Below, one piece after another: positions 951 through 45,579 of a stretch of DNA of 64,000 nucleotides; position 1 is the first letter of the stretch, and each line of letters opens with the position of its first letter. The stretch covers positions 735,811 through 799,810 of the forward strand of contig SVAI01000001.1 in the NCBI GenBank assembly GCA_015059495.1, read 5' to 3'. The DNA comes from Bacillota bacterium (GTDB lineage: Bacteria > Bacillota_I > Bacilli_A > RF39 > UBA660). The translations under genes and the position numbers were made by a program. The notes under the pieces are model-generated. The model had not been told where the DNA came from, made no database searches, and saw only the letters and a program-made list of their open reading frames with translations.

Positions 951-1185
951 CTTATCCCTCCTTTAATTGTTTTAGAAAATAAAAATACGCAAGTCCTTAT
1001 ACAATCGGACTTACGCATTATTGCTACACTTGAATATAATTGACTTAAATATACCTCTTAACACTTATAATTATATCATTTTTTTCTTTTTTTCGTAAGC
1101 TTTAAAAGAAAAAATATTTTTTTAAAAGTATCACAACATTACTATTTTTTGATCTAAAAAATATTTAATAATAAACAAAAAAACG

Positions 1186-1210
1186 GAGCCTTTCGGCTCC
1201 AAGGGGGTTT
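1186..1210 (-). terminator. rho-independent terminator downstream of recG
   Basis: Minus-strand GGAGCC-gaaa-GGCTCC hairpin followed by TTTTTTT. It is preceded by the GC-rich motif CCAAAACCCCC. Confidence 0.6.
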
Positions 1211-1318
1211 TGGTTGATTACATAAGTCACATTACATCGTAAAATATGTAACCGATAAATTTTTTATAGCATAACTACTGTTATGCTATATCAATAATAA
1301 TAGATTTTTATAATTTTG

Positions 1319-3289
1319 TCAATTATTAAAATCTAAATTTTTCATAATATTTTGATAGTTATTGTCAACATGTCCATTCTTTAAATATTCTTCACTATCT
1401 TTTTTAGTTTGCATCAATATTTTATAGTCTCTTCTTATATCTCCAACTTTAAATGCCATGTCTCCACTTTGTCTAATACCAAAAAGATCACCTTCACCAC
1501 GCATTTCAAAATCCTTTTCAGATATATAAAAACCATCATTAGATTCCTCTAAAACTTTTAATCTATCTATATCTTTATCACATATTAAATAACAATAAGA
1601 AGTTAAATCATTTCTACCTACACGACCTCTTAACTGATGAAGTGTAGCAAGACCAAATCTCTCAGAATTATAAATAGCCATAACAGTAGCATTCTTAACA
1701 TCAATACCTACTTCAATAACAGTAGTACTAATTAATATTTGAATATGTCCATTCTTATATTCTTCCATTACTCTGTTTTTTTCAATCTTAGACATCTTAC
1801 CATGTAATATATCTATATTTACTTTAGATCCAAAAGCTTTAACATAATTATCTTTTAATTTCTTAATATCATTTAAATCACTATCTTCTTCATCTTCAAT
1901 TAAAGGAGCTACTACATATATTTGATGACCACTTTTTAATTCATTCCACATATTTTCAAGTACATCTTTAATTTCACTTTCTTTTTTAACCATTGTAACT
2001 ATTTCTTTTCTATTAGCTGGTTTACTCTTAATTAAAGATATATCCATATCACCATATAACGCTAATGCATAAGTTCTAGGTATAGGTGTAGCACTCATAT
2101 AAATAACATCAGTTAAAGTACCTTTATTTTGTAATATATTTCTTTGATTAACACCAAATCTATGTTGTTCATCTGTTATTACTAAACCTAAATTATTAAA
2201 TTCTACATTATCACTTAATATAGCATGAGTACCTATTAATATATCTATTTCCCCTAGTCTTAACTTTTCAATAACTTTCTTCTTTTCTGATGCTTTTAAA
2301 CTACCTACTAATAAACCTATTTTAAGGTCTTTAAATAACTTTGTAAGTGTTTCATAGTGTTGTACTGCTAAAACTTCTGTAGGAGCCATTAAAGCACCTT
2401 GATAGCCACCTAAATAGTTAATATATAAACCAATCGTAGCAACAATAGTTTTACCTGATCCAACATCCCCTAATAATAATCTATTCATTCTTTGAGGACT
2501 AACTAAATCTCTATAAATATCATTAACAGATGTTTCTTGATCTTCAGTTAACTTAAAAGGTAAACTATTAATAAATTCATCTACTTTACTTTTATCTACT
2601 TCTCTTTTTAATCCTATATTATTAATAGTTCTCTTATACTTTAAATAATTCATCTTAAACATAAAAGTAAAGAATTCTTCATATATAGTTCTAAGCTTAG
2701 CTTGTTTTAATAACTTAATATCACTAGGATTATGTAATATACTAATAGCACTACTCTTATCTATAAAGTTATACTTTTCACTATAAATACTAGGTATATA
2801 ATCATCTATATTATATGAAGGAACACTATTAATTAATTTATTTAATTGTTTAGAAGTAATACCACTAGTTAAATGATATACACTTTCAATAGTAGGTTTA
2901 TCTATAACTTCAAACTTAATATCACTAGCAACAAAACTATTAGTCTTATTATTATATTTACCTATTAAAGATATCTCTTTTCCTCTAATTAAATTATTCT
3001 TCATAAATGCTCTATTAAATATAACAACTTTAACTATTTTATTTTCAGTAATAATTCTAAAATTTAAACTATTGAAATTTCTTCTTATATAAGCTACCTT
3101 AACATCACTTTCAATAACACCAGTAATTAACCCTGGATTATCTATTGTATTACTTAATGTAGTTCTATTTAACATATTATATCTATAAGGATAATATGTT
3201 AATAAATCATAAGTATTATATATATTTAATTTATTCAAATTTGATACAATTTTAGGGCCAATTCCCTTTATTTTACTTAATTCTTCCAT
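1319..3289 (-). CDS. recG: ATP-dependent DNA helicase RecG
   Basis: 656 aa. Walker A GDVGSGKT, DEQHRFG box and helicase C motifs. Wedge-domain N-terminus. Confidence 0.9.
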   Translation of the reverse strand: MEELSKIKGIGPKIVSNLNKLNIYNTYDLLTYYPYRYNMLNRTTLSNTIDNPGLITGVIESDVKVAYIRRNFNSLNFRIITENKIVKVVIFNRAFMKNNLIRGKEISLIGKYNNKTNSFVASDIKFEVIDKPTIESVYHLTSGITSKQLNKLINSVPSYNIDDYIPSIYSEKYNFIDKSSAISILHNPSDIKLLKQAKLRTIYEEFFTFMFKMNYLKYKRTINNIGLKREVDKSKVDEFINSLPFKLTEDQETSVNDIYRDLVSPQRMNRLLLGDVGSGKTIVATIGLYINYLGGYQGALMAPTEVLAVQHYETLTKLFKDLKIGLLVGSLKASEKKKVIEKLRLGEIDILIGTHAILSDNVEFNNLGLVITDEQHRFGVNQRNILQNKGTLTDVIYMSATPIPRTYALALYGDMDISLIKSKPANRKEIVTMVKKESEIKDVLENMWNELKSGHQIYVVAPLIEDEEDSDLNDIKKLKDNYVKAFGSKVNIDILHGKMSKIEKNRVMEEYKNGHIQILISTTVIEVGIDVKNATVMAIYNSERFGLATLHQLRGRVGRNDLTSYCYLICDKDIDRLKVLEESNDGFYISEKDFEMRGEGDLFGIRQSGDMAFKVGDIRRDYKILMQTKKDSEEYLKNGHVDNNYQNIMKNLDFNN

Positions 3290-5244: not shown

Positions 5245-7566
5245 TTATTCATCATCTCCAAAGAAATCATCAAAGAATTCATCATCAGAAATAACATTTT
5301 CATCAACTACAATACTATCGGCATCAACGTTAACTCTTGGTTTAGGTACATCCATAGTTACACTAGGTTGTACAACATTTGGAGTTTGTACAGGTACAAC
5401 GTTTGGTGTAGAAACTGGAGTAACTTGTGGTGTTTCAACAACTGGAGTTGGTTTAACATCAACTTCTGGAGCAGGAACACTAACTGGTTCCTTCTTAATC
5501 ATATTATCAATACTTGGAAGTTCAATATTAGCTTCCTTAATATCATCTTCAATAATCTTCTTATTTTCAATAGCATCAGCTTTTTCTTCTTTTTCTAATT
5601 TAGCAAGTTCAGCTTTCTTTCTTGCTTCTTCAGCATCAAGCTCTGCTATCTTTTTATCAATATCTCTCATCATTTGATCGATATCAAGTTCAGATAAACC
5701 TCCAGGTCCAAAAGGATTCTTAGGCATTCCACCACCCATAGGGTTAGGTCCCATTGGATTTGGTCCCATAGGTCCAGGACCCATTGGAGGAATTCCTCCC
5801 ATAAATGGATTAAATCCTGGTCCCATACCCAATGGTTGAGACATTGAATTCATTGTTTGTTCTTGTTTTTTAGCTTTAACATAAGCTTTAATATCAAATA
5901 CTTCGATTGGTTTTACTTCTCTTGTTGGATATTTAGCTGGAGTTGTTGTATGTCCCCAATCTGTTTTAAAGTTAACTGGTAACTTAGTCTTAAATGGATG
6001 TGATCTTAAACGTAATAAAATCGCATCAGGCCAGTGCATATGTTGTAAGTCAGTAACTGTAATTAATGGAGTTGAAGCAGTCTTATCATCTTTCTTAGAC
6101 TTAACTTCACCACAGACTTTAGATATTTCTTCTAAAGCAGCTAACTCAGTAGAAATTAAGTAAATTGTGTTACCGCAGTTACCTTTAATTACTTCTCCTA
6201 CTTCTTTACCATATACATCATTTAACTGTGCATAGTTTTGAATAATAAATGTAAATCTTATTTTACGTGAACGTGCAGCAGAAACCATTGAATCAACATC
6301 TTTTAATGGAGGCATGTTTGCAAACTCATCTAAGATAAAGTTTGTTCTATATGGTAATTTACCACCATTTTCTTGAGCAACATCAATTAATGTTTCATAA
6401 CATTGTTTAACAAAGATAGTAGCAAGGCCATGATATGTTGTTTTTTCATCATGAATAATTAAGAATACTGCAGTCTTACCCTTACCAATATCTCTCATAT
6501 CAAAATCACTATGACCTAACATTTCAGATAGGTTATCACGTGATGTAAATGTTCTAATCTTTTCTCTAAATGAAGCTAAGATACCACCTTGAGTTTCATT
6601 AGGAGATTCAATAGTACCAGATGCAAATGTATAAGCATTTGACTTAGTACCCATCATTTTAAAATACTCGTTAATATATTTAGATGTACCAAATCTCTCA
6701 TCACCATCAGTAGTCATCGCATTAATTGAGTTTAAGTTAGTTTCTTCTTCTTTAGCATTTTCAAATAATGATAATGCACAACCTGCAAAGAAACTTGATG
6801 CAGACTTTTCCCAGAATGGGTCACTCTTATTAGTAACATCTAAGATTGAAGATGAAACATCATCTAAAAGCTCAATTGCTTTATCTTTATTACCTGCTTT
6901 ATAAAATTGATATGGTAAAGCAAGTGGATTCCATGCAGAACCATGTGTTGGTTCTCTGAAGTTTAATACAATAACTTTATATCCTAACGATTTTAAATAT
7001 TCAGCGCTTTCTTGATAAATTTCACCCTTAGGGTCTGTAATAATCATTGATTCATTATTCTTAGCTAAAATATTAACCATTGGTTTAACAACACATAATG
7101 TTTTACCTGAACCAGATGAACCAATAACTAATGAGTGGAACTCACCATTATCAACCCAAACATGACCTTTTTTATCAGCATAAACAGGAATACCAGCAGC
7201 ATTAGTTGATTGAGCATTAGAATCAATCATTTCAATATCATCTGCTTCTTTCATTTCCTTTAATTTAGCCCATCTATTATATCCTTTTTCTTCTTTTTCT
7301 CCTATTTTTAACCCTATTCCAGATCCATCTTTAGAGAATATATAAGAAGATACACTTGTAAATATTACTATTAAAGATGCAATAAATAATGTAAATGTAA
7401 TACCAATATATTTACCTGTAAAAGCTTCAAATGGTACTAAACCATAAAGTTTTCCATGAGCACCAAATTCAACAAAATTCAATACTGCTATTGCACATAA
7501 GTAAAGTAATAGTATACAAAATATAATAAAAATTATTAAATCATCTTTTGATACCCTAAATTTCAT
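5245..7566 (-). CDS. TraG/VirD4(TrwB)-family type IV coupling-protein-like ATPase with disordered C-terminal tail
   Basis: Two N-terminal TM helices. Walker A VIGSSGSGKT, ITDPKGEIY, SAWNPL, Walker B NFILDEFANMPPL, and a TraG-D_C-like IIQNYAQL stretch. The C-terminus carries PMGPNPMGPNPMGGG repeats, a coiled coil, a P/T/V-rich stretch and an acidic DDEFFDDFFGDDE end. Confidence 0.6.
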   Translation of the reverse strand: MKFRVSKDDLIIFIIFCILLLYLCAIAVLNFVEFGAHGKLYGLVPFEAFTGKYIGITFTLFIASLIVIFTSVSSYIFSKDGSGIGLKIGEKEEKGYNRWAKLKEMKEADDIEMIDSNAQSTNAAGIPVYADKKGHVWVDNGEFHSLVIGSSGSGKTLCVVKPMVNILAKNNESMIITDPKGEIYQESAEYLKSLGYKVIVLNFREPTHGSAWNPLALPYQFYKAGNKDKAIELLDDVSSSILDVTNKSDPFWEKSASSFFAGCALSLFENAKEEETNLNSINAMTTDGDERFGTSKYINEYFKMMGTKSNAYTFASGTIESPNETQGGILASFREKIRTFTSRDNLSEMLGHSDFDMRDIGKGKTAVFLIIHDEKTTYHGLATIFVKQCYETLIDVAQENGGKLPYRTNFILDEFANMPPLKDVDSMVSAARSRKIRFTFIIQNYAQLNDVYGKEVGEVIKGNCGNTIYLISTELAALEEISKVCGEVKSKKDDKTASTPLITVTDLQHMHWPDAILLRLRSHPFKTKLPVNFKTDWGHTTTPAKYPTREVKPIEVFDIKAYVKAKKQEQTMNSMSQPLGMGPGFNPFMGGIPPMGPGPMGPNPMGPNPMGGGMPKNPFGPGGLSELDIDQMMRDIDKKIAELDAEEARKKAELAKLEKEEKADAIENKKIIEDDIKEANIELPSIDNMIKKEPVSVPAPEVDVKPTPVVETPQVTPVSTPNVVPVQTPNVVQPSVTMDVPKPRVNVDADSIVVDENVISDDEFFDDFFGDDE

Positions 7567-7610
7567 ATATAATCACCTAATCTTTTATCATTATACTACA
7601 TATAATTAAT

Positions 7611-8384
7611 TTAATCTATTACATAATTACTATTTTTATAATTAATAATTACATTTGTAACATTACTACTTTCAGCAAGATAACCTTCTATTTTATTTAA
7701 TATAATACTATCATTACTATTATCTAAAATATTAATAATAGAATTAATATTATAAACATATAAAGCATCTTCTTTTCTCTCATCTATTAAAGTAATAACT
7801 TCATTATTATACTTTATTAAAACTAAATTATAATAATTATTAATATTATCATTATCTTCCATTGAAGATAAAACTATTATTTCATCTTCAACACCATTCT
7901 TATCTAAATCAATATCTACTACTTCATTAGTAGTTAAATATTTAAATGAACTAATACCATAATTTTGTAATAATAAATATTTATCATCATCATTTATTTC
8001 TCTAACAGTATATTCTCTAGGTACTACTTCAAAATCATTAGATACAGCAAGTAATCTACCTTTATAAGAAACAAATTCATATTTATCATTTAATAAATTC
8101 CATTTAGCAACATATTTTAATCTATAATTACCAAAATATTTATTATCTACAAATACCTTCATATTATTTAACGCTTCGATAGTATTTTTACTAGCCTTTG
8201 AAAAACTATTCTTCTCATATTTATATATGCCAGATTCACCAACAACCATATAATAAGTTGCAGTTTTTGTTGGTGTATTATTAGTTGTTGTACCTTGTTC
8301 TGGTTTACCAAGAACAAAGTACATTACTAATCCATATATTGAAAATATTACAATAGCAATTATTAACCCTTTTATATTTTTCAT
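7611..8384 (-). CDS. membrane-anchored hypothetical protein
   Basis: 257 aa with an N-terminal signal-anchor. It sits between the T4CP-like gene and the hydrolase gene. Confidence 0.4.
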   Translation of the reverse strand: MKNIKGLIIAIVIFSIYGLVMYFVLGKPEQGTTTNNTPTKTATYYMVVGESGIYKYEKNSFSKASKNTIEALNNMKVFVDNKYFGNYRLKYVAKWNLLNDKYEFVSYKGRLLAVSNDFEVVPREYTVREINDDDKYLLLQNYGISSFKYLTTNEVVDIDLDKNGVEDEIIVLSSMEDNDNINNYYNLVLIKYNNEVITLIDERKEDALYVYNINSIINILDNSNDSIILNKIEGYLAESSNVTNVIINYKNSNYVID

Positions 8385-8395
8385 ATCTTTTTCTC

Positions 8396-10789
8396 CTATT
8401 TAGCTGGTCTACAGAAATATGTACCATTGCCTTTATATAGTGAAACACTAACTTGATCTGGTTGTGGTTTAGGTACTGTATGATTTTTGTCTTGCCATTG
8501 ACCATGTGCAGCAAACTCTTGGTTGTTACCAATATACATTGATACATGACCTATACTCTTATAATTATCACTATTAGCATAACCATTACCTGCATAGAAT
8601 ATTAAATCTCCAACAGACAAGCTGCCACTAGAAATAACTTTACCATTCTTTTCACACCATCTATATATTTCACCAGATGTATCTGAACTATCATAAATTT
8701 TATAACTGAAGTGTCCATATGCTCTAGATACCATTGAAGAACAATCTACATATCCATCTTGATGCCTATTACTTTGAGAATAACTCCAACTATCATATGT
8801 AGCAACAGCATATTCAGCTACTCTCTTACCTAATGTTAATAAATCACCAGTAGCAACCGCATCTCCTTCTTCAGTACATGATTCTCCACCTAAATCAAAT
8901 ACTTGTTGTCTAGTTTCACTCATCCTAGAAACTTGCCATTTAGCATAAGCACTTTGATCTTCATCTGTAGTAGGAACACAACTTGCCTCTGATCCAGTAC
9001 ATTTATTTCCTTCAGCACAAGCAGCTTCAACAACACTTTGCCTTTCTTCACTTAAATACTCTCTTATATAAGGAAAGTAATAACAACCTCCAACACCTGA
9101 TCCACCTGGATTTAGCCAAACACGACCTATATAAGAATACTTCATCATCATTTGATATGCAGTAGCATAATTATGATTCTTTATATTATTAATAAATCCC
9201 ATAACACCAGCATCAAATGAAGGGAACTGTTGACATTGTTTTTCACTAGCACCGTTAAAACATCCTAAACCCCAATAGTTGTTAGATGAACCACCTGGGT
9301 CAAATCCTTCTCTAACAGCTCTAACTACAACCATCTCAGGGTTAAAGTTATTTTCAACTGAAATATCATATATTCTTCCAGCATTAGATTTAAACGCTCC
9401 ATTATTAACATTAGACATAACATAATTAATAAATTCTTCTCTAGATAATGTAGTTTCAGTTAATGATATATCACTACAATAACTACCATATTCTCCACCA
9501 GAACCACCAAATTTAACTACATTATAAATATGTCCTTCACCAGTAGCTTTCCAGTCATAGAAATGATATAAAATACCATGATAATTTTGATCCATTTTCT
9601 CAACTAAATACCAAGCAGCCCATGGTGAAAAACTATCTTTATCTGCATCACCTTGTTTAATATAATTAGAATCAACTGTTGAATCTATCCAATCCTTTAT
9701 ATAGTACATATCATCTTGAGATAATACATATACTTCTCCATCATAAGTTGTAGTAACTTCTTTATAAGTAAAATTATCATCTATTTTTAATTCACTTAAA
9801 TTTATAGGATCTAAAGAGAATACCTTATTATGAGTATATTCAATAGCATCAAATATAACTTGATTTTCATCATCTTCTTTAGGGTCAAAATAAGGTTGAT
9901 CTATTTCAAACTCACATGTATTAGATGACATATTATTAGAATTATAATATAAGTTAGTTCTATAAATAATCGCTAATGCTCTTAAAACTTCTTCATTATC
10001 TATTTCTTTATAATTTTTAACAGCCATTTGATAAGCTAAATATTCTTTATTAGTAACAGTTTCTTCTTTTTCTACTAAAACAGTACCTTCCCATTCTTCC
10101 CATTTTACTTTAACATTATCACAATAATTAACATACATATTAGTTACATTAATCTTTTCATCAGTAATAGATGATGTAACAATAAATACTACTGCAATAA
10201 CTAGTAAAATTAAAAGTAATATTCCAAGAATAGGTAATAAAAAAGGTAATACTCTTTCAACAAGGAATACAAATATCTTCTTTCTAACAACAGCTTTAGT
10301 TTTTTCTTTAGCTACTTGAGCAGCAGCACTTGCAGCATTTTCTCCTTCTTCTTTTGCTTTTTTTACTACTTGATTAGCAGCTCCAACTGCACTAGCCATC
10401 TTACTAGAAGCTTCTTTAGCCTTGTTATTAGCAGTAGTCTTCTTATTTTTATCATCTTGATTTTCATCATTTTTCTTTTTGTTATTATTTCTTAAGTTAT
10501 TAATTTTATTATTAATAATTTGAGACATTGAATCTTTAGTTGGTAACTTAGAAGCACCAACTCTATTTCTTTGTCTAGCATTTTGAAGTTGACTATCCAT
10601 TACAACATTCTCATTATTATCTACTTCTTCTTCAACATCATCTTCAATATCAGGAACATTATTTAATGGAGTTTCCATTTCTTCATTTTTAATATCATTA
10701 TCATTTAAAGTATCTATTGGATTAATTTTCCTAGGTTGTCTAGGCAATCCATTGGTAGTGTTATTATTATTTTCATTATTATCACTCAT
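8396..10789 (-). CDS. membrane-anchored cell-wall hydrolase with C-terminal NlpC/P60 (C40) peptidase domain
   Basis: The N-terminus is N/K/E-rich low complexity with one TM segment (LPFLLPILGILLLILLVIAVVFIV), followed by a large extracellular region. The C-terminus has NlpC/P60 signatures (DCSSMVSRAYGH...GDLIFY...IGHVSMYIG). Cys-rich mid-region. Confidence 0.6.
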   Translation of the reverse strand: MSDNNENNNNTTNGLPRQPRKINPIDTLNDNDIKNEEMETPLNNVPDIEDDVEEEVDNNENVVMDSQLQNARQRNRVGASKLPTKDSMSQIINNKINNLRNNNKKKNDENQDDKNKKTTANNKAKEASSKMASAVGAANQVVKKAKEEGENAASAAAQVAKEKTKAVVRKKIFVFLVERVLPFLLPILGILLLILLVIAVVFIVTSSITDEKINVTNMYVNYCDNVKVKWEEWEGTVLVEKEETVTNKEYLAYQMAVKNYKEIDNEEVLRALAIIYRTNLYYNSNNMSSNTCEFEIDQPYFDPKEDDENQVIFDAIEYTHNKVFSLDPINLSELKIDDNFTYKEVTTTYDGEVYVLSQDDMYYIKDWIDSTVDSNYIKQGDADKDSFSPWAAWYLVEKMDQNYHGILYHFYDWKATGEGHIYNVVKFGGSGGEYGSYCSDISLTETTLSREEFINYVMSNVNNGAFKSNAGRIYDISVENNFNPEMVVVRAVREGFDPGGSSNNYWGLGCFNGASEKQCQQFPSFDAGVMGFINNIKNHNYATAYQMMMKYSYIGRVWLNPGGSGVGGCYYFPYIREYLSEERQSVVEAACAEGNKCTGSEASCVPTTDEDQSAYAKWQVSRMSETRQQVFDLGGESCTEEGDAVATGDLLTLGKRVAEYAVATYDSWSYSQSNRHQDGYVDCSSMVSRAYGHFSYKIYDSSDTSGEIYRWCEKNGKVISSGSLSVGDLIFYAGNGYANSDNYKSIGHVSMYIGNNQEFAAHGQWQDKNHTVPKPQPDQVSVSLYKGNGTYFCRPAK

Positions 10790-23740: not shown

Positions 23741-23772
23741 TTGTTGAATATATATAAATTATGTGATATAAA
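23741..23772 (+). promoter_or_regulatory. promoter of convergent small RNA (locus 1)
   Basis: TTGTTG, 17 nt, TGaTATAAA (extended -10). Confidence 0.4.
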
Positions 23773-23779
23773 TTAATTA

Positions 23780-23884
23780 AGGACGACATCCAAACATTAA
23801 TACTGTTCAGGTGTTGTGCCGTATTTTTGGTTTAGCACTCACTGACCAAAACCCCCGTGGGTTAAATCAGTGAGTGCTTTTTTT
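23780..23884 (+). ncRNA. candidate ~105-nt small RNA ending in an intrinsic terminator that abuts the stop codon of the convergent peptide gene (putative type I antitoxin)
   Basis: No ORF. The 5' end begins AAGGACGACAUCC. The 3' end is a 12-bp stem AGCACTCACTGA / TCAGTGAGTGCT (23834..23878) followed by T7. Confidence 0.35.
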
Positions 23885-23963
23885 ATCTATAAATTATAAT
23901 ACCTAGTAAGGTAAAAATAACAACAAATAATAAGATTATTATAAAGTAAACTTTATTACTCAT
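23883..23963 (-). CDS. 26-aa hydrophobic peptide MSNKVYFIIILLFVVIFTLLGIIIYR (putative type I toxin-like membrane peptide)
   Basis: Not in the ORF track. GGAGGG RBS 8 nt upstream of the ATG. An upstream CCUUUC...GGAAGG hairpin can sequester the SD. A paralogue is at 35881..35949. Confidence 0.45.
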   Translation of the reverse strand: MSNKVYFIIILLFVVIFTLLGIIIYR

Positions 23964-24035
23964 AATTATCCCTCCTTCCTTTTAAAGAAAGGCACAAGCA
24001 CACCTGATTTGTATTACATCAGATGCGTCTTTTTT

Positions 24036-24064
24036 CTTATATCACAAGTAATAACAAAAGACAA
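24036..24064 (-). promoter_or_regulatory. promoter for the hydrophobic-peptide mRNA (locus 1)
   Basis: Minus strand TTGTCT, 17 nt, TGaTATAAG. The predicted transcript starts AAGACGCAUCUG. Confidence 0.4.
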
Positions 24065-24186
24065 ATTTCAAAAATATACTCAAACTTAAACAGTTATTTA
24101 ATTATCCATAGATAAAAAAGAATTTATTGATATTAATAAATCTTAATAAATATCTTATTGAACATATTTTCATTCAAAAAATACAA

Positions 24187-33339: not shown

Positions 33340-35706
33340 TTATTCTGTTCTAAGTGATGTAACAACATCTTGTTTACTAGCAATATGAGCAGGTATTGCT
33401 CCGCCAATTAATGTTAATACCATACTAATTGCTATTAATATAACTGCATGTATAGGATTTAACTCTGCTACATTTTCTAATGTAGTTAAATCATATAATA
33501 GATTATTAATTGGAATAATTAGCAATAATGCTATTATAATACCAAGTAAACCAGACACTAATCCAATAATAACTGTTTCAGCATTAAATACTCTTTTAAT
33601 ATCTTTTTTACGAGCACCTAAGCTTCTTAAAATACCAATCTCTTTAGTTCTTTCTAATACACTAATATATGTAATTATACCAAGCATAATAGATGATACA
33701 ACTAATGATATTGCACTAAATGCAATTAATACTGCAGTAATACCATCCATGATTGATCCAGACATATTACTAATTAATTCAGCTTGATTAATAAATGATA
33801 CTTTATCTTTTTCTTCTTTACCATCATTATATTTATTTAAATATTCAACTATCTTTTCAGTAGAATTAAAATCATTAGGATAAATATATATATAACCAGG
33901 AGTTTCAATAGCCCCTAAATTTAATAATGTCATATGTCTTTCATATTTACCCATTTCAGTAGTATTATCAAATTCTAATCCAGTTAAAACATTATAATCA
34001 GCTTTTTCTTGTTCTTTAACAATCTTAGAATTCTTAGCACTTTCCTTAACATAATCTTGTAATTTATTAGATGTGTATAAAGAAGACTTACTATCTCTTA
34101 ATCCAATTGAACTATATTTATCTTCTTTGATTCTTATAATACCAACTACTTTTAAGGTTAAATTAGAATTATCATTATACATTTTTTCATTTATTACATC
34201 TGGAATAAATAAGTTTCCAATATTTTTATAATATGTATCATTATTAACTAATTTAATAGTACATTTTAAAATATCATCAAATGTATATTCATCACCATTT
34301 AAATTCAAAGCCTTTACTAAATCAGATGAAATCATATTTGATTTAGATACTTCAACTACTATCTCATCTTTTTCAACAGGTAATTTACCTTCTAATACAT
34401 CATAATAATTTTCTAAAATAGTATTTTTATTTTCATCATATTTTATAGGAATAGGCATAATATTAACATTTAATCTATCTAAATTAATATATTTATCTCC
34501 ACTCTTTTGAATAAGATTCATTCTTATACTATTATCTACTAATGAAGATGAAACATATTCTTTAGGAATATTATTAATATATTCCATATAATCATCAGTA
34601 ATAGGATTAATAGAAGTAGCAAATACATTACTCTTATCTTCATCCACCTTTTTAACTACTCTTTCATCAGTAAAATCATTTTCTTCATCTTCTTGAGTCA
34701 TACCTGAATTAGAAGAAAAAGCACTTCTTATAGATTCAGCAGTAATATTTTGTTTTGTAGCACTAATAATTATTGGCATAGCATCACTAACTTGATGTTC
34801 AAAATCATCTATTTTATTTTGAAAACCATTAGATAATGATAGTATTAAAGCAATACCAATAATACCAATTGATGAAGCAAAAGCAGTTATTAATGTTCTA
34901 CCTTTTTTAGTTTTAATATTATTTAATGATAAATATAATGCAGTAAAGAAAGACATCTTAGTCTTCTTTAATTTATATTCACTATCTTCTTCATCACTAT
35001 CATATTTATTAGAATCATTAATAATTTCTCCATCTTTCATATTAATAACTCTAGATGCATAATCTTTAGCTAAATCAGGATTATGAGTAACCATAATAAC
35101 TAACTTATCTTCAGCTATTTCTTTTATTAATTTCATGATTTGAACACTAGTCTTTGTATCTAATGCACCAGTTGGCTCATCAGCTAAAATAATCTCTGGA
35201 TCATTCGCTAAAGCTCTAGCAATAGCAACTCTTTGCATTTGTCCACCAGAAAGTTGATTAGGTTTCTTATGCATATGGTCTCCTAAACCAACCTTTTTTA
35301 ATAATTCTTTAGCTTTCTTTCTTCTTACTTTATATTTCTTACCAGATAAAGTCATACCCATTTCAACATTATCTAAAATGGAAATATGACTAATTAAATT
35401 ATAACTTTGAAATATAAATCCAATAGATTTATTTCTATAAGCATCAAAGTCTTTATCTTTAAACTTTTTAGTAGATTTACCCTTAATTAATAAATCACCA
35501 CTATCATATCTATCTAAACCACCAATTATATTAAGTAATGTTGTTTTACCACTACCAGATGGTCCTAATATAGCAACAAATTCATTTTTTCTAAACTTTA
35601 AATTAATTCCATTTAAAGCATGTTGAATAAATGTACCAGTCTTATAACTTTTCTTAATATTCTTTAACTCTAACATATTATCCCTCCATATCATTAATAA
35701 TAACAT
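33340..35706 (-). CDS. fused ABC transporter ATP-binding protein/permease (MacB/FtsX-type)
   Basis: N-terminal NBD (GPSGSGKTT, LSGGQMQR, ILADEPTGALD) and a C-terminal FtsX-like 4-TM permease with a large extracytoplasmic loop. Confidence 0.8.
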   Translation of the reverse strand: MLLLMIWRDNMLELKNIKKSYKTGTFIQHALNGINLKFRKNEFVAILGPSGSGKTTLLNIIGGLDRYDSGDLLIKGKSTKKFKDKDFDAYRNKSIGFIFQSYNLISHISILDNVEMGMTLSGKKYKVRRKKAKELLKKVGLGDHMHKKPNQLSGGQMQRVAIARALANDPEIILADEPTGALDTKTSVQIMKLIKEIAEDKLVIMVTHNPDLAKDYASRVINMKDGEIINDSNKYDSDEEDSEYKLKKTKMSFFTALYLSLNNIKTKKGRTLITAFASSIGIIGIALILSLSNGFQNKIDDFEHQVSDAMPIIISATKQNITAESIRSAFSSNSGMTQEDEENDFTDERVVKKVDEDKSNVFATSINPITDDYMEYINNIPKEYVSSSLVDNSIRMNLIQKSGDKYINLDRLNVNIMPIPIKYDENKNTILENYYDVLEGKLPVEKDEIVVEVSKSNMISSDLVKALNLNGDEYTFDDILKCTIKLVNNDTYYKNIGNLFIPDVINEKMYNDNSNLTLKVVGIIRIKEDKYSSIGLRDSKSSLYTSNKLQDYVKESAKNSKIVKEQEKADYNVLTGLEFDNTTEMGKYERHMTLLNLGAIETPGYIYIYPNDFNSTEKIVEYLNKYNDGKEEKDKVSFINQAELISNMSGSIMDGITAVLIAFSAISLVVSSIMLGIITYISVLERTKEIGILRSLGARKKDIKRVFNAETVIIGLVSGLLGIIIALLLIIPINNLLYDLTTLENVAELNPIHAVILIAISMVLTLIGGAIPAHIASKQDVVTSLRTE

Positions 35707-35713
35707 ATTTTAT

Positions 35714-35742
35714 TGATTATTAAACTAAATTGTGTTATATAT
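35714..35742 (+). promoter_or_regulatory. promoter of convergent small RNA (locus 2)
   Basis: TTGATT, 17 nt, TGtTATATA. Confidence 0.35.
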
Positions 35743-35747
35743 TATTT

Positions 35748-35825
35748 AGGGACGACATCTAAAGTGATTAATTTAGATGTTTGTGCCTTAGGTTTTTAGG
35801 CATTCATCTTTGAATGTCCTTTTTA
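35748..35825 (+). ncRNA. candidate ~80-nt small RNA, paralogue of the 23780..23884 RNA
   Basis: Begins AGGGACGACAUCU. Contains an ACATCTAAA/TTTAGATGT hairpin and a CATTCA-tctt-TGAATG hairpin followed by T5. No ORF. Confidence 0.3.
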
Positions 35826-35880
35826 ATTTCTAAAAATTATCCATACCAAAACCCCCACGGTTTTATATATGTAACTTATG

Positions 35881-35949
35881 TCAATTTATGATCATAAGAA
35901 TAATTGTTATAATTAATAATATAATTATGACATAAGAATACTTATTCAT
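35881..35949 (-). CDS. 22-aa hydrophobic peptide MNKYSYVIIILLIITIILMIIN (paralogue of the locus-1 peptide)
   Basis: Not in the ORF track. AAGGAGG RBS 8 nt upstream. The SD lies in a CCUUAAU-gaau-AUUAAGG hairpin. It shares the M-x-N-K-x-Y-x-I-I-I-L-L pattern with the locus-1 peptide. Confidence 0.45.
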   Translation of the reverse strand: MNKYSYVIIILLIITIILMIIN

Positions 35950-36017
35950 AAATTATACCTCCTTAATATTCATTAAGGCATAAACATTCACTTAACCAAA
36001 ATAGATGCGTCTACATC

Positions 36018-36046
36018 CTTATAACACATAAGTATTAAAAAAACAA
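36018..36046 (-). promoter_or_regulatory. promoter for the hydrophobic-peptide mRNA (locus 2)
   Basis: Minus strand TTGTTT, 17 nt, TGtTATAAG. The transcript would start ...GUAGACGCAUCUA. Confidence 0.35.
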
Positions 36047-38762: not shown

Positions 38763-40961
38763 TTAATTTGTTTTTAAAGTGAAGTATCCTGGATTACCAT
38801 TTGTAGGATCATCAACACGAGCATATTCTTTGTCAGTATGAGATGAATCATATGTTGTACCTGCTCCACCTTTGATATTTATAGATTTTAGAAACATATT
38901 AGTGCTACTTGTAACTGCCGAAGTATTAAAATTGTTGCCAACATACAACGTTGTTAATGCACTCATTCCATTAAACATTGATAACATATTTGTTACATTT
39001 GAAGTATTAAAATTACTTATGTCCAAACTTGTTATACCTTTCGTTCCAGAAAACATTGCGGACATATTTGTTACATTTGAGGTATCAAGATTACTTACAT
39101 TTAAGTTAGTTAGACTACTCATTCCGGAAAACATTGCAGACATATTTGTTACTTTTGAGGTATTAAGATTACTTACATTTAAATTAGTTAAACTTCTCAT
39201 TCCATAAAACATATCTGACATATTCGTTACATTTGAGGTATTAAAACTACTTATATCAAAGCTAGTCAAACTATTCAATCCATAAAACATATAAGACATA
39301 TTTGTTACATTTGAAGTATTAAAATTACGCAAATCTAAACTTGTTAAATTATTCATTCCATTAAACATTGATGACATATCAGTTACATTTGAAGTATTAA
39401 AATTATGCAAATCTAAACTTGTTAAATTATTCATTCCACTAAACATACTGTTCATATTTTCTACATTTGAAGTATCAAAATTTCTTATATCTAAATTTGT
39501 TAGACCACTCATTAAAGAAAACATACTAGACATATTTGTTACATTTGATGTATTAAAACTACTTATATCTAAATTTGTTAGACTACTCATTTTATAAAAC
39601 ATAAAAGCCATACTTGTAACTTTTGAAGTATCAAAATTACTTATATCAAGTACTGTTAAATTGTTCATATTACTAAACATACTATTCATGCCTGTTACAT
39701 TTGAGGTATCAAAACTACTTAAATCTAACGTTGTTAATGCACTCATTGTAGAAAACATATATGACATAGTTGTTACTTTTGAAGTATCAAAATTTCTTAC
39801 ATCTAAAATTGATAAGCTTTGTAAATTGTCAAACATTGACACCATATTTGTAACTTTTGAGGTATTAAAAGTGCTTACATCTAAATCTGTTAGACTATAC
39901 ATTGCATGAAACATACTGTACATATTTTCTACATTTGAAGTATCAAAATTACTTATATCTAGTACTGTTAAATTGACCAATCCATCAAACATACTACCCA
40001 TATTCGTTACTTTTGAGGTATCAAAATTACTTACATCTAAAGTTGTTAATGCACCCATGCTAGAAAACATTTTAGACATGTCAGTTACTTTTGAAGTATT
40101 AAAGATATTTAAGTCTAGGTTTGTTAAACCCAGCATATGGTAAAACATATATGATGAATCACTATTCATATAAATAGTATCCGCTTCACTATAAAGATAT
40201 ACAGTTCCATTATCAAACCACGCATATACAAGAATAGGTTCATTAAAATCAGAAACTATAACCTTATCAGCACCTTCTGGTGGTGGATTCAAACTTCTCA
40301 CGATAGCTTTTATTGACGTATTTCTATCACTATATGACGCATAAGTACTACCAGTTGATTTTTTAAGATACTGGTTAAAATATTTACCATTTTTTAATAT
40401 TACTTCCTTATAATTCTTTTTTAATGTTGATCTAACTGTTATTTTAGAACTTAAAGTTTTACTTAATACTTCATCATTGTCAGCATCTTCTTTAATCCAT
40501 AATCTTAAGTTATATGATTTAGAGTCCCCTGCTGCTATAGTATCTTCATAGAACTTAGCAGCACTAGATGCATTAGATAACGTGGGTTCAACACTATTAT
40601 TATCGCCATATGTATGAATATGTCCATTAACATCTACTCTTAAATTTTCACCAGCAATTTGACTATCATTTAAAGTTTCCAAATTTATTGATATATCTGC
40701 TGCATGTTCACATATATTTGTTAAAGTAAATTTATATGGAGTTGTATATACACCCTTACCATCTTTCATTGGAAATGAATTAGTTAAACTAATAGCTTGA
40801 CTTCCCTCAGTAAAAGTTATTTCAAAACAATCTGATACTACTACATTTGTACTCTCTTGTGATACATTAAATACCCATAATGCATAAGAAGAACTTAGCA
40901 TTAAAGATAATACTAATAAAATACCAATAACTAATAATGTAATTTTATGTTTCTTCTTCAT
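38763..40961 (-). CDS. DUF285 (PF03382)-repeat surface protein, paralogue A
   Basis: N-terminal signal/TM, then about 17 tandem ~25-aa repeats of the form LTxLDISNFDTSNVTNMSSMFxGM, and a C-terminus GGAGTTYDSSHTDKEYARVDDPTNGNPGYFTLKTN. Confidence 0.75.
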   Translation of the reverse strand: MKKKHKITLLVIGILLVLSLMLSSSYALWVFNVSQESTNVVVSDCFEITFTEGSQAISLTNSFPMKDGKGVYTTPYKFTLTNICEHAADISINLETLNDSQIAGENLRVDVNGHIHTYGDNNSVEPTLSNASSAAKFYEDTIAAGDSKSYNLRLWIKEDADNDEVLSKTLSSKITVRSTLKKNYKEVILKNGKYFNQYLKKSTGSTYASYSDRNTSIKAIVRSLNPPPEGADKVIVSDFNEPILVYAWFDNGTVYLYSEADTIYMNSDSSYMFYHMLGLTNLDLNIFNTSKVTDMSKMFSSMGALTTLDVSNFDTSKVTNMGSMFDGLVNLTVLDISNFDTSNVENMYSMFHAMYSLTDLDVSTFNTSKVTNMVSMFDNLQSLSILDVRNFDTSKVTTMSYMFSTMSALTTLDLSSFDTSNVTGMNSMFSNMNNLTVLDISNFDTSKVTSMAFMFYKMSSLTNLDISSFNTSNVTNMSSMFSLMSGLTNLDIRNFDTSNVENMNSMFSGMNNLTSLDLHNFNTSNVTDMSSMFNGMNNLTSLDLRNFNTSNVTNMSYMFYGLNSLTSFDISSFNTSNVTNMSDMFYGMRSLTNLNVSNLNTSKVTNMSAMFSGMSSLTNLNVSNLDTSNVTNMSAMFSGTKGITSLDISNFNTSNVTNMLSMFNGMSALTTLYVGNNFNTSAVTSSTNMFLKSINIKGGAGTTYDSSHTDKEYARVDDPTNGNPGYFTLKTN

Positions 40962-42958: not shown

Positions 42959-43105
42959 TTATTTTCTACAACCGTATGGTCTAAAAAAGCCATCAATTAT
43001 GCCAATAACGAATGCACCACCAGTAATTAATGCACCGATTAGTCCAAGACTAATTGCACCACCTTTAACATCTTTTAATTCTTCTTTACTAAGTTCTATT
43101 TTCAT
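42959..43105 (-). CDS. double-glycine-leader bacteriocin-like peptide 2 (48 aa)
   Basis: Not in the ORF track. GGAGG RBS. Leader MKIELSKEELKDVKGG fits the LSxxELxxIxGG consensus. The 32-aa core AISLGLIGALITGGAFVIGIIDGFFRPYGCRK has GxxxG-type motifs. Its stop overlaps the RBS of peptide 1. Confidence 0.6.
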   Translation of the reverse strand: MKIELSKEELKDVKGGAISLGLIGALITGGAFVIGIIDGFFRPYGCRK

Positions 43106-43115
43106 AACATACCTC

Positions 43116-43550
43116 CTATAATAAAACATTAATTATTTTATTTATTATTAGTTCTTTATTCGAATACAAACTAACATCTATAAAAGTATTTAATATACCA
43201 TCATCTAGTTGGTCTACTTCTAAAGTTACAATTTGATAATTATTCTTAGTTAATTCATCTGAATATATATCACTAACTGTTATATTATTTATATTTTTGT
43301 TTTCTTTGTTAATTTTAATCATATCTATATTTTTATATTTATTAGTATCTAAATAATTAACAGTTAATTCTATCTTACATATATCATCACAACTAACATA
43401 TCCTTTTATTTTTTTAACATCATATATTTTAAAAATAAATAAAGATATTATGATAATACTAAAACTAATTAATATTAAATATATTAATATATTATATTTT
43501 GGTTTTAAACTTCTTAAATAACTTATATTATCAACCATTAAAACCACCAC
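43116..43550 (-). CDS. short membrane-anchored accessory protein of the bacteriocin exporter (HlyD/LcnD-like, truncated)
   Basis: 144 aa. N-terminal TM then a small beta-rich domain. It overlaps the ABC gene by 20 nt and precedes the peptide genes by 10 nt. Confidence 0.4.
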   Translation of the reverse strand: MVVLMVDNISYLRSLKPKYNILIYLILISFSIIIISLFIFKIYDVKKIKGYVSCDDICKIELTVNYLDTNKYKNIDMIKINKENKNINNITVSDIYSDELTKNNYQIVTLEVDQLDDGILNTFIDVSLYSNKELIINKIINVLL

Positions 43551-45579
43551 TTACTACTAAATCAAAATGATAACTAGGCTTAAAATGAGAAATAATAATG
43601 AAGGTTTTATTATTATAATAGTTAAAAATATTATTAATCATTTTATTAGCATCACCTTCTTCTACTGCACTAAATGTTTCATCAAAAATTATTATTGGGT
43701 TATCTTTTAATAATTCTCTTGCCATGATAATTCTAGATCTTTCTCCACCACTCAAATTAGAAACATCTTCTCTTATCATAGTATCTAATCTTAAAGACTT
43801 CTTATTTAATATATCATTAACTTCACATAATTCTAATACAGTATTTAATTTATTCTTATCAACATCCATATTTAAAGTAATATTATTAAAAATAGTATCA
43901 TTAAATATAGCTTCATCTTGAGATATATAAGAAATATTATTTCTAATAGTATCTAAACTATAATCTAATATATTAATATTATTAATTTTAATACTACCTT
44001 TAATTGGATTATATAATCTATCTAATAATTTAAATAAAGTACTCTTACCACTACCACTTTTACCCATAACTAATACTTTACTATTTTCTCTTATTTTTAA
44101 AGAATAATTCTTAATTGGATAATCATACATATTATAAGAATAATCAATATTATTAAACTCTATATCACCATTTTTAAATGACTCTTTTTTCTTATTACTT
44201 TCTTCCTCCAACATAAGAAAATCATTTATTTTAATAAAACTTCTTCTTATATATACATACTTAGGTATTAAATTAATAATATCTTTTATTGGATTAATAA
44301 AAAACATATATAAAGAATTATAAGTAATTAAATCTAATAATTCTAAAGTATTATTAATTACAAACATAAGAGCAAAACTATTTAAGATAAATAAACCTAT
44401 TTCTAATATAAAAGTATTAATAAAATTATAAATATTTATTTTATTATTAATTGAAAAGGTATTATATAAATATTCATATATTTTATTATTTAACTTACTC
44501 ATAGTAAAAGATTTATTATTCTTAACACTTATAATGTGATTTAAACTATTAGTAAGACTAGAATTAAAACTAGTCTGATAATTAATATTATCCTCAATAT
44601 AATTATTAATTGGTTTAATCCATATTAAATTATTAATTAAATAGATAAATATAACTAATAATAATATAATTGTTAATTTCACATTAATAATCATTAATAC
44701 AATTATAGATGTTATAACTAATAATAAATTTAATACTAAAGTAACAAACATATTAGCAAATAATTCTTTTAAGTTATTTAATTCATTAACTCTAGTAATT
44801 ATTTCACCACTGGTTCTATTACTTATAGCATTCAAAGGGATATTAAATATATGTTTAATAAAATCAGGTAATAAACTACAATCAATATTTTTATTAATAT
44901 AATTTTCAAAATAAGTTCTTAAATAATCTAATATTACTTTTAATAAAGTTATTATAAAGAATATTAAAATAATAAAATAAAACATACCCTTATTATTACT
45001 ATCTACATTACCAATAATTACCTTTATCATAAAAGAACTAATTATGGATACAATAGTTAGTAATAAACTAGTAATAAACATTCTTATTATTAATCTATTA
45101 TCACTTTTAATATATCTTAAAAATATATTCAATAATTTATTATCTTTAGAGTAATTAATTACATTAGATATTAAACTAAATTCAATAATAATATCTTTAT
45201 AAATACTTTTAAATTCATCATACTTTAGTTTTCTTAATCCTTTAGCAGGATCCATAACTAATATATACTTTTTAGTTATTTCATAAACTACTATATAATG
45301 CCTTAAACCATTTTTTAATTCAACGTAGGAAATAAACGGATAAACTAATTTACTCTTTATTAAATCATCAAAACTAATTCTTGTACCCCTTCCATCAAAC
45401 CCGTACCTTTTAGCTGCAGCAATTAAATTAAAAGCACTAATACCTGATGAACTAATACATGAATCTATTTTTATCTTTTCTAGTGATATATTACCACCAT
45501 AATATTTAATAATAGATAGTAAACAAGCAGCACCACAATCCTTAATATCTTGTTGTCTAACAACTACTTTTTTAAACAT
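43531..45579 (-). CDS. bacteriocin-processing ABC transporter with N-terminal C39 double-glycine peptidase domain
   Basis: N-terminus VVRQQDIKDCGAACLLSIIKYYG (C39 Cys motif). Six TM helices. NBD GKSGSGKST, LSGGERSR, Walker B-like IIIFDETFSAVE. Confidence 0.8.
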   Translation of the reverse strand: MFKKVVVRQQDIKDCGAACLLSIIKYYGGNISLEKIKIDSCISSSGISAFNLIAAAKRYGFDGRGTRISFDDLIKSKLVYPFISYVELKNGLRHYIVVYEITKKYILVMDPAKGLRKLKYDEFKSIYKDIIIEFSLISNVINYSKDNKLLNIFLRYIKSDNRLIIRMFITSLLLTIVSIISSFMIKVIIGNVDSNNKGMFYFIILIFFIITLLKVILDYLRTYFENYINKNIDCSLLPDFIKHIFNIPLNAISNRTSGEIITRVNELNNLKELFANMFVTLVLNLLLVITSIIVLMIINVKLTIILLLVIFIYLINNLIWIKPINNYIEDNINYQTSFNSSLTNSLNHIISVKNNKSFTMSKLNNKIYEYLYNTFSINNKINIYNFINTFILEIGLFILNSFALMFVINNTLELLDLITYNSLYMFFINPIKDIINLIPKYVYIRRSFIKINDFLMLEEESNKKKESFKNGDIEFNNIDYSYNMYDYPIKNYSLKIRENSKVLVMGKSGSGKSTLFKLLDRLYNPIKGSIKINNINILDYSLDTIRNNISYISQDEAIFNDTIFNNITLNMDVDKNKLNTVLELCEVNDILNKKSLRLDTMIREDVSNLSGGERSRIIMARELLKDNPIIIFDETFSAVEEGDANKMINNIFNYYNNKTFIIISHFKPSYHFDLVVSGGFNG

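Follow-up and report, generated by a model that had tools for sequence, protein, structure and literature searches.

Type I toxin-antitoxin systems have recurrent hallmarks, namely a primary transcript that cannot be translated, a hairpin that sequesters the Shine-Dalgarno sequence (SD; an anti-SD hairpin), and a long-distance interaction (PMC6733600), and in Gram-positive systems the antitoxin is convergent with the toxin gene and overlaps its message at the 3′ end (PMC8167048, PMC8309996). In hok/sok of plasmid R1 and aapA/IsoA of Helicobacter pylori the full-length toxin mRNA is closed by 5′-3′ pairing, and local SD-sequestering hairpins are able to act during transcription (PMC6733600, PMC8167048), and at bsrG of Bacillus subtilis the binding of the antitoxin RNA SR4 to the 3′ end brings about both decay by RNase III and a tighter structure around the SD (PMC8309996). 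Here we describe a module of two convergent predicted RNAs in a ~330-base spacer segment (35714-36046) upstream of a MacB-type ABC transporter gene in a rumen Bacillota; all coordinates refer to the window, which is the whole 64-kb stretch of DNA (25% G+C) that was analysed. The layout of the module matches the general type I hallmarks (PMC6733600, PMC8167048), and the comparisons reported below suggest, with a probability of roughly 60%, that it represents an undescribed family of chromosomal type I toxin-antitoxin-like cassettes, with two paralogues in the host genome.

The host is an uncultured rumen Bacillota represented by a metagenome-assembled genome (MAG). One of the proteins flanking the module (MBE6158909.1) is recorded in NCBI as 'MAG: Firmicutes bacterium', and matches to the flanking proteins come from rumen and herbivore-gut samples, the relatives being labelled 'Bacilli bacterium'. 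The analysis draws on sequence and comparison only, and the elements described are predicted throughout.

Two predicted convergent RNAs at two paralogous loci

The module upstream of the ABC transporter gene (copy 2) lies in a 510-nt spacer bounded on one side by a gene for a 98-aa protein and on the other by the ABC gene. A preliminary description of this DNA had reported a promoter on each strand, a leader with an SD-sequestering hairpin in front of a 22-aa open reading frame (ORF), and an ORF-less RNA with two hairpins and a U5 terminator, and on direct reading of the sequence each of these is in place. On the minus strand, a −35 hexamer TTGTTT (36041-36046; identical in seven strain haplotypes) is separated by 17 nt from an extended −10 element TGtTATAAG (36018-36026), and promoter geometry places +1 of the predicted toxin mRNA at G36011. 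The resulting 5′ leader (35950-36011) begins GACGCAUC and contains the anti-SD hairpin CCUUAAU-GAAU-AUUAAGG (35961-35978; arms 35978-35972 and 35967-35961), which overlaps the SD sequence AAGGAGG (35958-35964). The ATG lies 8 nt downstream of the SD core and opens an ORF (35881-35949) for a 22-aa hydrophobic peptide, MNKYSYVIIILLIITIILMIIN, the putative toxin, whose frame is kept in all strains. Beyond the ORF, the 3′ untranslated region (3′UTR) is predicted to form a hairpin AAAACC-GUGGG-GGUUUU (35848-35864) that overlaps a conserved 12-mer, GGGGGUUUUGGU (35845-35856), the two together occupying 35845-35864 of the minus strand.

On the plus strand, a promoter at 35713-35741 (TTGATT, 35713-35718; 17 nt; TGtTATATA, 35733-35741) is predicted to drive a convergent small RNA (sRNA) of ~78 nt (35749-35826), the putative antitoxin. 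It begins GGGACGACAUCU and consists of a 5′ hairpin followed by a terminator hairpin (35799-35818) with a U5 tract; the hairpin is followed by CUUUUU, and the terminator scan expects 0.0 such terminators by chance. The sRNA folds more stably than expected (z = −4.2) and has no SD-preceded ORF, and Rfam scans of the RNAs of the module, both at the gathering threshold and with E up to 10, returned only noise. By the antisense criterion of type I systems, a conserved convergent promoter, a terminator and a stable fold are present, and the complementarity presupposes a toxin mRNA that reaches the 3′UTR: the sRNA is complementary to the toxin mRNA only where the latter extends through the 3′UTR, and overlaps neither the ORF nor the SD.

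Neither copy 2 promoter was listed by our promoter scan, because the scan accepts only a −10 that ends in T and a −35 with four or more of six matches, and the toxin −10 ends in G; the extended −10 elements were hence read by eye. AT-rich DNA yields many chance promoter matches, and what supports both promoters is their positional conservation, between paralogues and across strains.

The second locus (copy 1) is located beside rny and has the same parts in identical order, so that the claim of two diverged copies sharing one architecture is borne out. Its toxin promoter (24036-24064, minus strand) consists of TTGTCT (24064-24059) and TGaTATAAG (24044-24036) at a spacing of 17 nt, and is followed by a leader (24029-23964) beginning GACGCAUCUG and an ORF (23963-23883) for a 26-aa peptide, MSNKVYFIIILLFVVIFTLLGIIIYR. 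The plus-strand sRNA (~23781-23885; fold z = −5.3), with a terminator hairpin at 23834-23878 and a U7 tract, is preceded by TTGAAT (23744-23749) and TGaTATAAA (23764-23772), the sRNA and its promoter together spanning 23744-23885. The TATAAA form of the −10 is also found at copy 2 in other strains.

A blastn alignment of the two copies extends over only 63 nt at 76% identity, and overall they are about two-thirds identical, far below the 92-98% identity among strain variants of each copy, which indicates old paralogues and no recent duplication. Short shared motifs stand out from this divergence. The motif GGATGTCGTCC occurs at two sites with at most one mismatch (0.02 expected) and GGGGGTTTTGGT at four (0.06 expected), both beyond chance; AGACGCATCT alone, with two sites and 0.82 expected, is not significant. 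The 12-mer GGGGGUUUUGGU sits in the loop of a hairpin in copy 1 and in a hairpin in copy 2, next to the ORF.

The two peptides (22 and 26 aa) have hydrophobic cores of 15-18 residues and one predicted membrane helix each, and are encoded behind AAGGAGG and an ATG. On the two strands of the 64-kb window, three ORFs of 15-50 codons combine a preceding SD with 12 or more hydrophobic residues in a run, and these are the two peptides and a bacteriocin precursor. Neither peptide has a family match in Pfam or NCBIfam, both searched with E up to 10, or in PADLOC.

Predicted pairing of the mRNA ends and variation among strains

If the toxin mRNA ends opposite the start of the sRNA, its terminal segments, ~38 nt at the 5′ end and ~40 nt at the 3′ end, are predicted to pair in both paralogues as 30-31 bp in four helices (H1-H4). 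In minimum free energy (MFE) folds of copy 2 the 5′ strand of this duplex is mRNA nt 1-38 (35974-36011) and the 3′ strand, whose position depends on the assumed 3′ end, is nt 222-261 (35751-35790); the latter ends GAUGUCGUC and complements the 5′ domain of the sRNA. In the predicted fold of copy 1 the corresponding 3′ strand (23782-23820) pairs with 23991-24029, and whole-mRNA folds of the two paralogues have z-scores of −6.1 and −9.2. H1 is conserved in sequence, with GACG-CAUCU paired to AGAUG(U)CGUC, bulged U included, and the UGCC/GGCA core of H4 is common to both copies, whereas H2 and H3 differ in sequence with pairing kept.

Pair changes were counted by script with both copies in structural register: 18 pairs are identical, three show one-sided changes, five are compensatory, and none is broken. 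The alignment of the two loci that the preliminary description had proposed was made with MAFFT, unguided, and from it RNAalifold recovers H1, H2 (double-sided changes in three of six pairs), the anti-SD hairpin (three such changes) and a hairpin at the AUG (two); double changes affect 14 of the 53 predicted pairs. The covariance analysis of the sRNA that it had also called for yielded nothing, the two sRNAs aligning poorly by themselves with a consensus structure that has no meaning.

The pairing bears on the conserved 5′ motifs. Since the sRNA 5′ domain complements the 3′ closing strand of the mRNA, it closely reproduces the toxin leader, and the leader/sRNA repeat appears in the DNA as an inverted repeat; the common start of mRNA and sRNA, GACG(A)CAUC, would follow from the long-range pairing of the mRNA ends. 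On this model, 5′-3′ pairing of the mRNA, which the preliminary description had overlooked, best explains the conserved motifs. Modelling also predicts how the SD responds. In copy 1 its unpaired probability is ~0.16 and is low in all states; in copy 2, blocking or removal of the 3′ region lowers it from 0.62 to 0.24.

Strain comparisons show where the module is constrained. In strains whose flanks are ~5% diverged, the copy 2 leader (62 nt) and 3′UTR/sRNA (131 nt) carry no substitution in 193 nt, the only difference being the length of an A-run; the chance of this is 0.95^193, or ~5e-5. In the same comparison the ABC gene, spoIIP and the 98-aa gene are 5-6% different and the spacer upstream of the promoter 13%. 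The constraint on the RNA 5′ motifs proposed in the preliminary description is supported. In copy 1, the variant in L191 has only two leader changes (UG to CA), which replace two G·U pairs of the long-range helix by Watson-Crick pairs while breaking a competing local 5′ hairpin; its 3′UTR changes are confined to loops and linkers, and its ORF has two silent and two conservative changes. The copy 2 ORF differs among strains by four substitutions, every one of which changes an amino acid (V7I, I21L, N22K and, in two contigs, T15K). Together, the evidence from both copies suggests that RNA structure is more constrained than the exact peptide sequence, and what is retained of the peptide, to judge from these variants, is its hydrophobicity, length and frame. 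As regards the peptide sequence, the selection that had been proposed alongside that on the RNA motifs is weak.

Copy 1 is variably present. A 412-bp segment that contains it (23744-24155), flanked by the imperfect direct repeat ATATrTTCAAyAA, is missing in at least one strain, L003, which has an identical RNase Y protein and a PBP-rny spacer of 175 nt rather than 587 nt. In the related species L209 this spacer is 101 nt long and contains the same promoter of rny but not the module, so the empty site is probably the ancestral state. From these alignments, copy 1 is evidently an accessory element with an insertion polymorphism between strains.

Such a polymorphism, with its ~13-nt imperfect direct repeat (seen at copy 1 only), together with a ~380-410 bp unit that has inverted-repeat arms and a location in intergenic spacers in both cases, would also be expected of a miniature inverted-repeat mobile element or repeated intergenic element, the arms serving DNA transactions and the ORF and promoters being incidental. 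We give this very little credence. The arms covary within each copy and differ between copies in H2 and H3, whereas arms recognised by a transposase would be uniform, and the arm motif that is conserved lies inside the unit, ~37 nt short of its right-hand boundary. Moreover, just two copies, about two-thirds identical, are present in ~84 kb, and both copies, in all strains, retain the SD, the ATG and an in-frame hydrophobic ORF.

Weighing the module against described type I systems

A number of observations weigh against a toxin-antitoxin cassette. The covariation comes from one comparison, that of two independent paralogues, together with near-identical strains. Substitutions accumulate in the copy 2 ORF at the background rate and all of them change an amino acid, which speaks only weakly for selection on the peptide, and short Ile/Leu-rich ORFs arise easily in AT-rich genomes. 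The peptide is missing the charged tail that is common in many type I toxins, and T15K (in L196 and L200) puts a lysine in the middle of the copy 2 helix; this change may be inactivating or may be a sequencing variant, and chromosomal toxin genes often carry inactivating changes. Scans of public collections, which required exact motifs, found no relatives in other taxa. Finally, the terminator scan finds no intrinsic terminator on the toxin strand of either copy, and transcription of the toxin mRNA may continue into the ABC gene or rny, the 3′ end needed for the long-range pairing being assumed.

This last point bears on the suggestion, raised in the preliminary description as grounds for rejecting its own proposal, that the peptide is encoded by an upstream ORF in a joint transcript with the ABC transporter gene or rny. 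The module would then be a cis-regulatory leader, and the plus-strand RNA an antisense regulator of a long 5′UTR. No minus-strand terminator separates the ORF from the ABC start, the peptide ORF and the downstream gene share a strand in both copies, and the −35 of the ABC gene, as read by eye, is only weak. On the other hand, rny has its own promoter, TTGATA-17-TATAAT (11 of 12 matches), which is intact and in the same position in the module-free strain and species, and ABC homologues that are ~70% identical have no module, and hence no such leader, upstream. The ABC gene also has a candidate promoter of its own outside the module: an extended −10, TGtTATTAT (approximately 35692-35700, minus strand, by eye), whose 'n' position differs between strains, lies ~8 nt upstream of AUGGAGGG, just before the ABC SD. 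The same module precedes two unrelated genes, and the end of the long-range duplex falls exactly opposite the point where the sRNA begins, an arrangement that points to a discrete unit. We consider a leader of this kind highly unlikely.

A different possibility concerns the peptide rather than the RNAs. A small, non-toxic membrane protein under antisense-RNA control, for example a modulator of a membrane protein, would have an RNA anatomy identical to that of a toxin-antitoxin cassette, and it fits with the lack of known-toxin motifs, with the tolerance of amino-acid changes and with the position of both copies next to genes for membrane-associated proteins (the MacB-type ABC transporter and RNase Y). 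The triple lock on translation, formed by the anti-SD hairpin, the AUG hairpin and 5′-3′ closure, is typical of genes whose basal synthesis is harmful (PMC6733600), and the module is dispensable, being missing beside rny in one strain and in relatives, with two genomic contexts that are unrelated; a non-toxic product is unlikely on these grounds.

The family as sampled is small. Coverage comprised ~84 kb of the host genome and 57 kb of DNA from relatives, besides strict-motif scans of public collections, and no further copy was found in 10 kb past each window edge or in the 57 kb around the relatives' ABC homologues. The 'small paralogous family' of the preliminary description holds as regards paralogy, with just two members in all the DNA sampled. 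A scan of genome contigs for AGACGCATCT-N215-245-GATGTCGTCC gave 58 matches, all in DNA of 44-75% G+C and rejected as chance, and a loose 17-base pattern gave more than 120 matches in viral contigs, likewise chance; two stricter patterns gave none in the viral contigs. A 23-base pattern had 12 matches in metagenomes, ten of them in an unrelated human-gut epimerase gene and two being strain variants of the two copies. Searches of plasmids and phages by blastn and tblastn produced no genuine match; an alignment of 54 nt to Lactiplantibacillus plasmids (82.5%) was set aside as AT-rich chance similarity, lying ~190 nt from an annotated holin-like toxin with no overlap.

Among described systems, the par locus of Enterococcus faecalis pAD1 (RNA I/RNA II; Fst, of the Fst/Ldr family) resembles the module in having convergent promoters and a toxin mRNA and short antitoxin RNA whose 3′ ends overlap in a terminator hairpin, with complementary loops that could start the contact (PMC7472228). 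It also hides the SD by an intramolecular hairpin and holds the extreme 5′ end of the mRNA in a helix (PMC7472228), although the module does the latter by a long-range duplex and not by an upstream helix. The two differ in that the direct repeats DRa and DRb of par give 5′ complementarity over the start site (PMC7472228), whereas the repeats of the module are inverted and its RNA 5′ ends are alike. Complementarity of the par type was looked for, and the pairing of the module sRNA with leader plus ORF is no better than that of shuffled RNAs (fractions 0.08 and 0.18). Likewise, par has a shared bidirectional terminator, whereas the U-tract of the module is on the sRNA strand only, and neither module peptide has the PXXXG(C) motif, conserved Trp and charged C-terminal tail of Fst or matches an Fst model. 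Membership in the Fst/par family is ruled out by the inverted repeats, the lack of 5′ complementarity, and the lack of an Fst motif or model match.

With hok/sok and aapA/IsoA the module shares the closure of the full-length mRNA by its ends, predicted here with an assumed 3′ end, local SD-sequestering hairpins that could act during transcription, and a fold that is conserved with covariation among paralogous loci (PMC6733600, PMC8167048). In those systems, however, the antisense RNA targets the 5′ leader/start region of a 3′-trimmed mRNA, whereas the module sRNA is antisense to the 3′UTR closing strand only. In addition, the SD of copy 1 is hidden by a local hairpin and not by distant 3′ sequence, the host of the module is of Gram-positive type, and there is no sequence similarity and no match to a Hok/Gef or AapA model.

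The B. subtilis systems bsrG/SR4 and txpA/RatA share with the module a convergent antitoxin over the 3′ end of the toxin mRNA (the toxin 3′ end being assumed here), and the modelled fall in SD accessibility of copy 2 on 3′ blocking is like the dual action of SR4 (PMC8309996). BsrG is longer, at 38 aa (PMC8309996) compared with 22-26 aa, and there is no sequence, Rfam, Pfam or NCBIfam similarity to either system.

Peptides of the Ibs/Sib loci of Escherichia coli are very short and almost purely hydrophobic (18-19 aa), as are those of the module. These loci, too, are repeated units of the chromosome present in several copies, each accompanied by an antisense RNA of its own (PMC4147584). They differ in that Sib is antisense to the whole ORF and ribosome-binding site (PMC4147584), whereas the module sRNA overlaps neither ORF nor SD. 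In the type I literature cited here, we found no description of a 5′-3′ closing duplex in which the 3′ strand is the antitoxin target.

For a type I toxin-antitoxin-like cassette, we infer the transcript ends, the involvement of an RNase and the toxicity of the peptide, and the module might work as follows. The extended −10 promoter would drive a ~260-nt toxin mRNA (36011 to ~35750, minus strand) for the 22-aa single-helix membrane peptide, and during its synthesis the local anti-SD and AUG hairpins would block translation. On completion, the first ~38 nt would pair with the last ~40 nt, burying the 5′ end and leaving a message that is stable and inert, as in the hok and aapA mRNAs. The convergent promoter would make the ~78-nt sRNA, fully complementary to the 3′UTR including the 3′ strand of the closing duplex, and the 12-mer GGGGGUUUUGGU is a possible site of first contact, by analogy with the terminator loops in par (PMC7472228). 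Binding of the sRNA would form a long perfect duplex that triggers decay, if the analogy to RNase III in other Gram-positive systems holds, and at copy 2 would also free the leader such that the anti-SD hairpin re-forms. A drop in sRNA would then allow the peptide to be made, and the peptide would damage or depolarise the membrane.

Other elements of the window and implications

Three further loci of the window were noted. A bacteriocin-type locus (42959-45579, minus strand) encodes a 48-aa peptide with a double-glycine leader, MKIELSKEELKDVKGG, an adjacent 144-aa protein of no known family and a C39-peptidase ABC exporter. Conjugation-type genes are present beside core genes such as dnaJ (5245-10789, minus strand), coding for a VirD4/TraG-like coupling protein, a 257-aa product and a 797-aa NlpC/P60 protein, and may be the remnant of an integrative conjugative element. 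A gene for a DUF285/leucine-rich-repeat surface protein (38763-40961, minus strand) has only 59% DNA identity to the corresponding gene of a strain in which the genes next to it are ~95% identical, and from this comparison appears to be fast-evolving or recombining.

There is also a candidate stand-alone sRNA of ~110 nt (~1172-1281, minus strand) in the spacer between recG and a gene for a 164-aa protein (region 1172-1316), found as well in L210 (~1610-1760, plus strand). Its promoter, TTGACA-17-TATTAT, overlaps the end of recG, and it has two hairpins, a single-stranded ACCAAAACCCCC, a strong terminator and a fold z-score of −6.6. It is ~85-90% conserved, with a compensatory change in hairpin 1, in a relative with a 71%-identical ABC protein, and has no match in Rfam. 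The C-rich 12-mer ACCAAAACCCCC occurs exactly in both antitoxin-side RNAs and is complementary to both toxin 3′UTRs, and a rough estimate of the probability of a third exact copy by chance is ~5e-4. Given this sharing, the core sRNA may cross-regulate the toxin messages. A fuller scheme, which we offer tentatively and regard as doubtful, would have the antitoxin RNA mimic the toxin leader, compete for the 3′ closing strand and signal its binding to a ribosome-binding site 200 nt away, with the core sRNA perhaps acting on the toxin messages too through the shared 12-mer.

If the module is what we propose, it would add a type I family from an uncultured rumen Bacillota with a small genome, in which none is annotated, and its 22- and 26-aa peptides would be short for Gram-positive type I toxins. 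It would unite the end-to-end mRNA closure of hok and aapA with the 3′-overlapping antitoxin of Gram-positive systems, features that are usually described apart, and an antitoxin directed at the closing strand would provide a testable model for how binding at the 3′ end controls a distant ribosome-binding site. Cassettes of this kind are missed by gene callers and family models, and would be recognisable by a leader/sRNA inverted repeat that covaries between paralogues.

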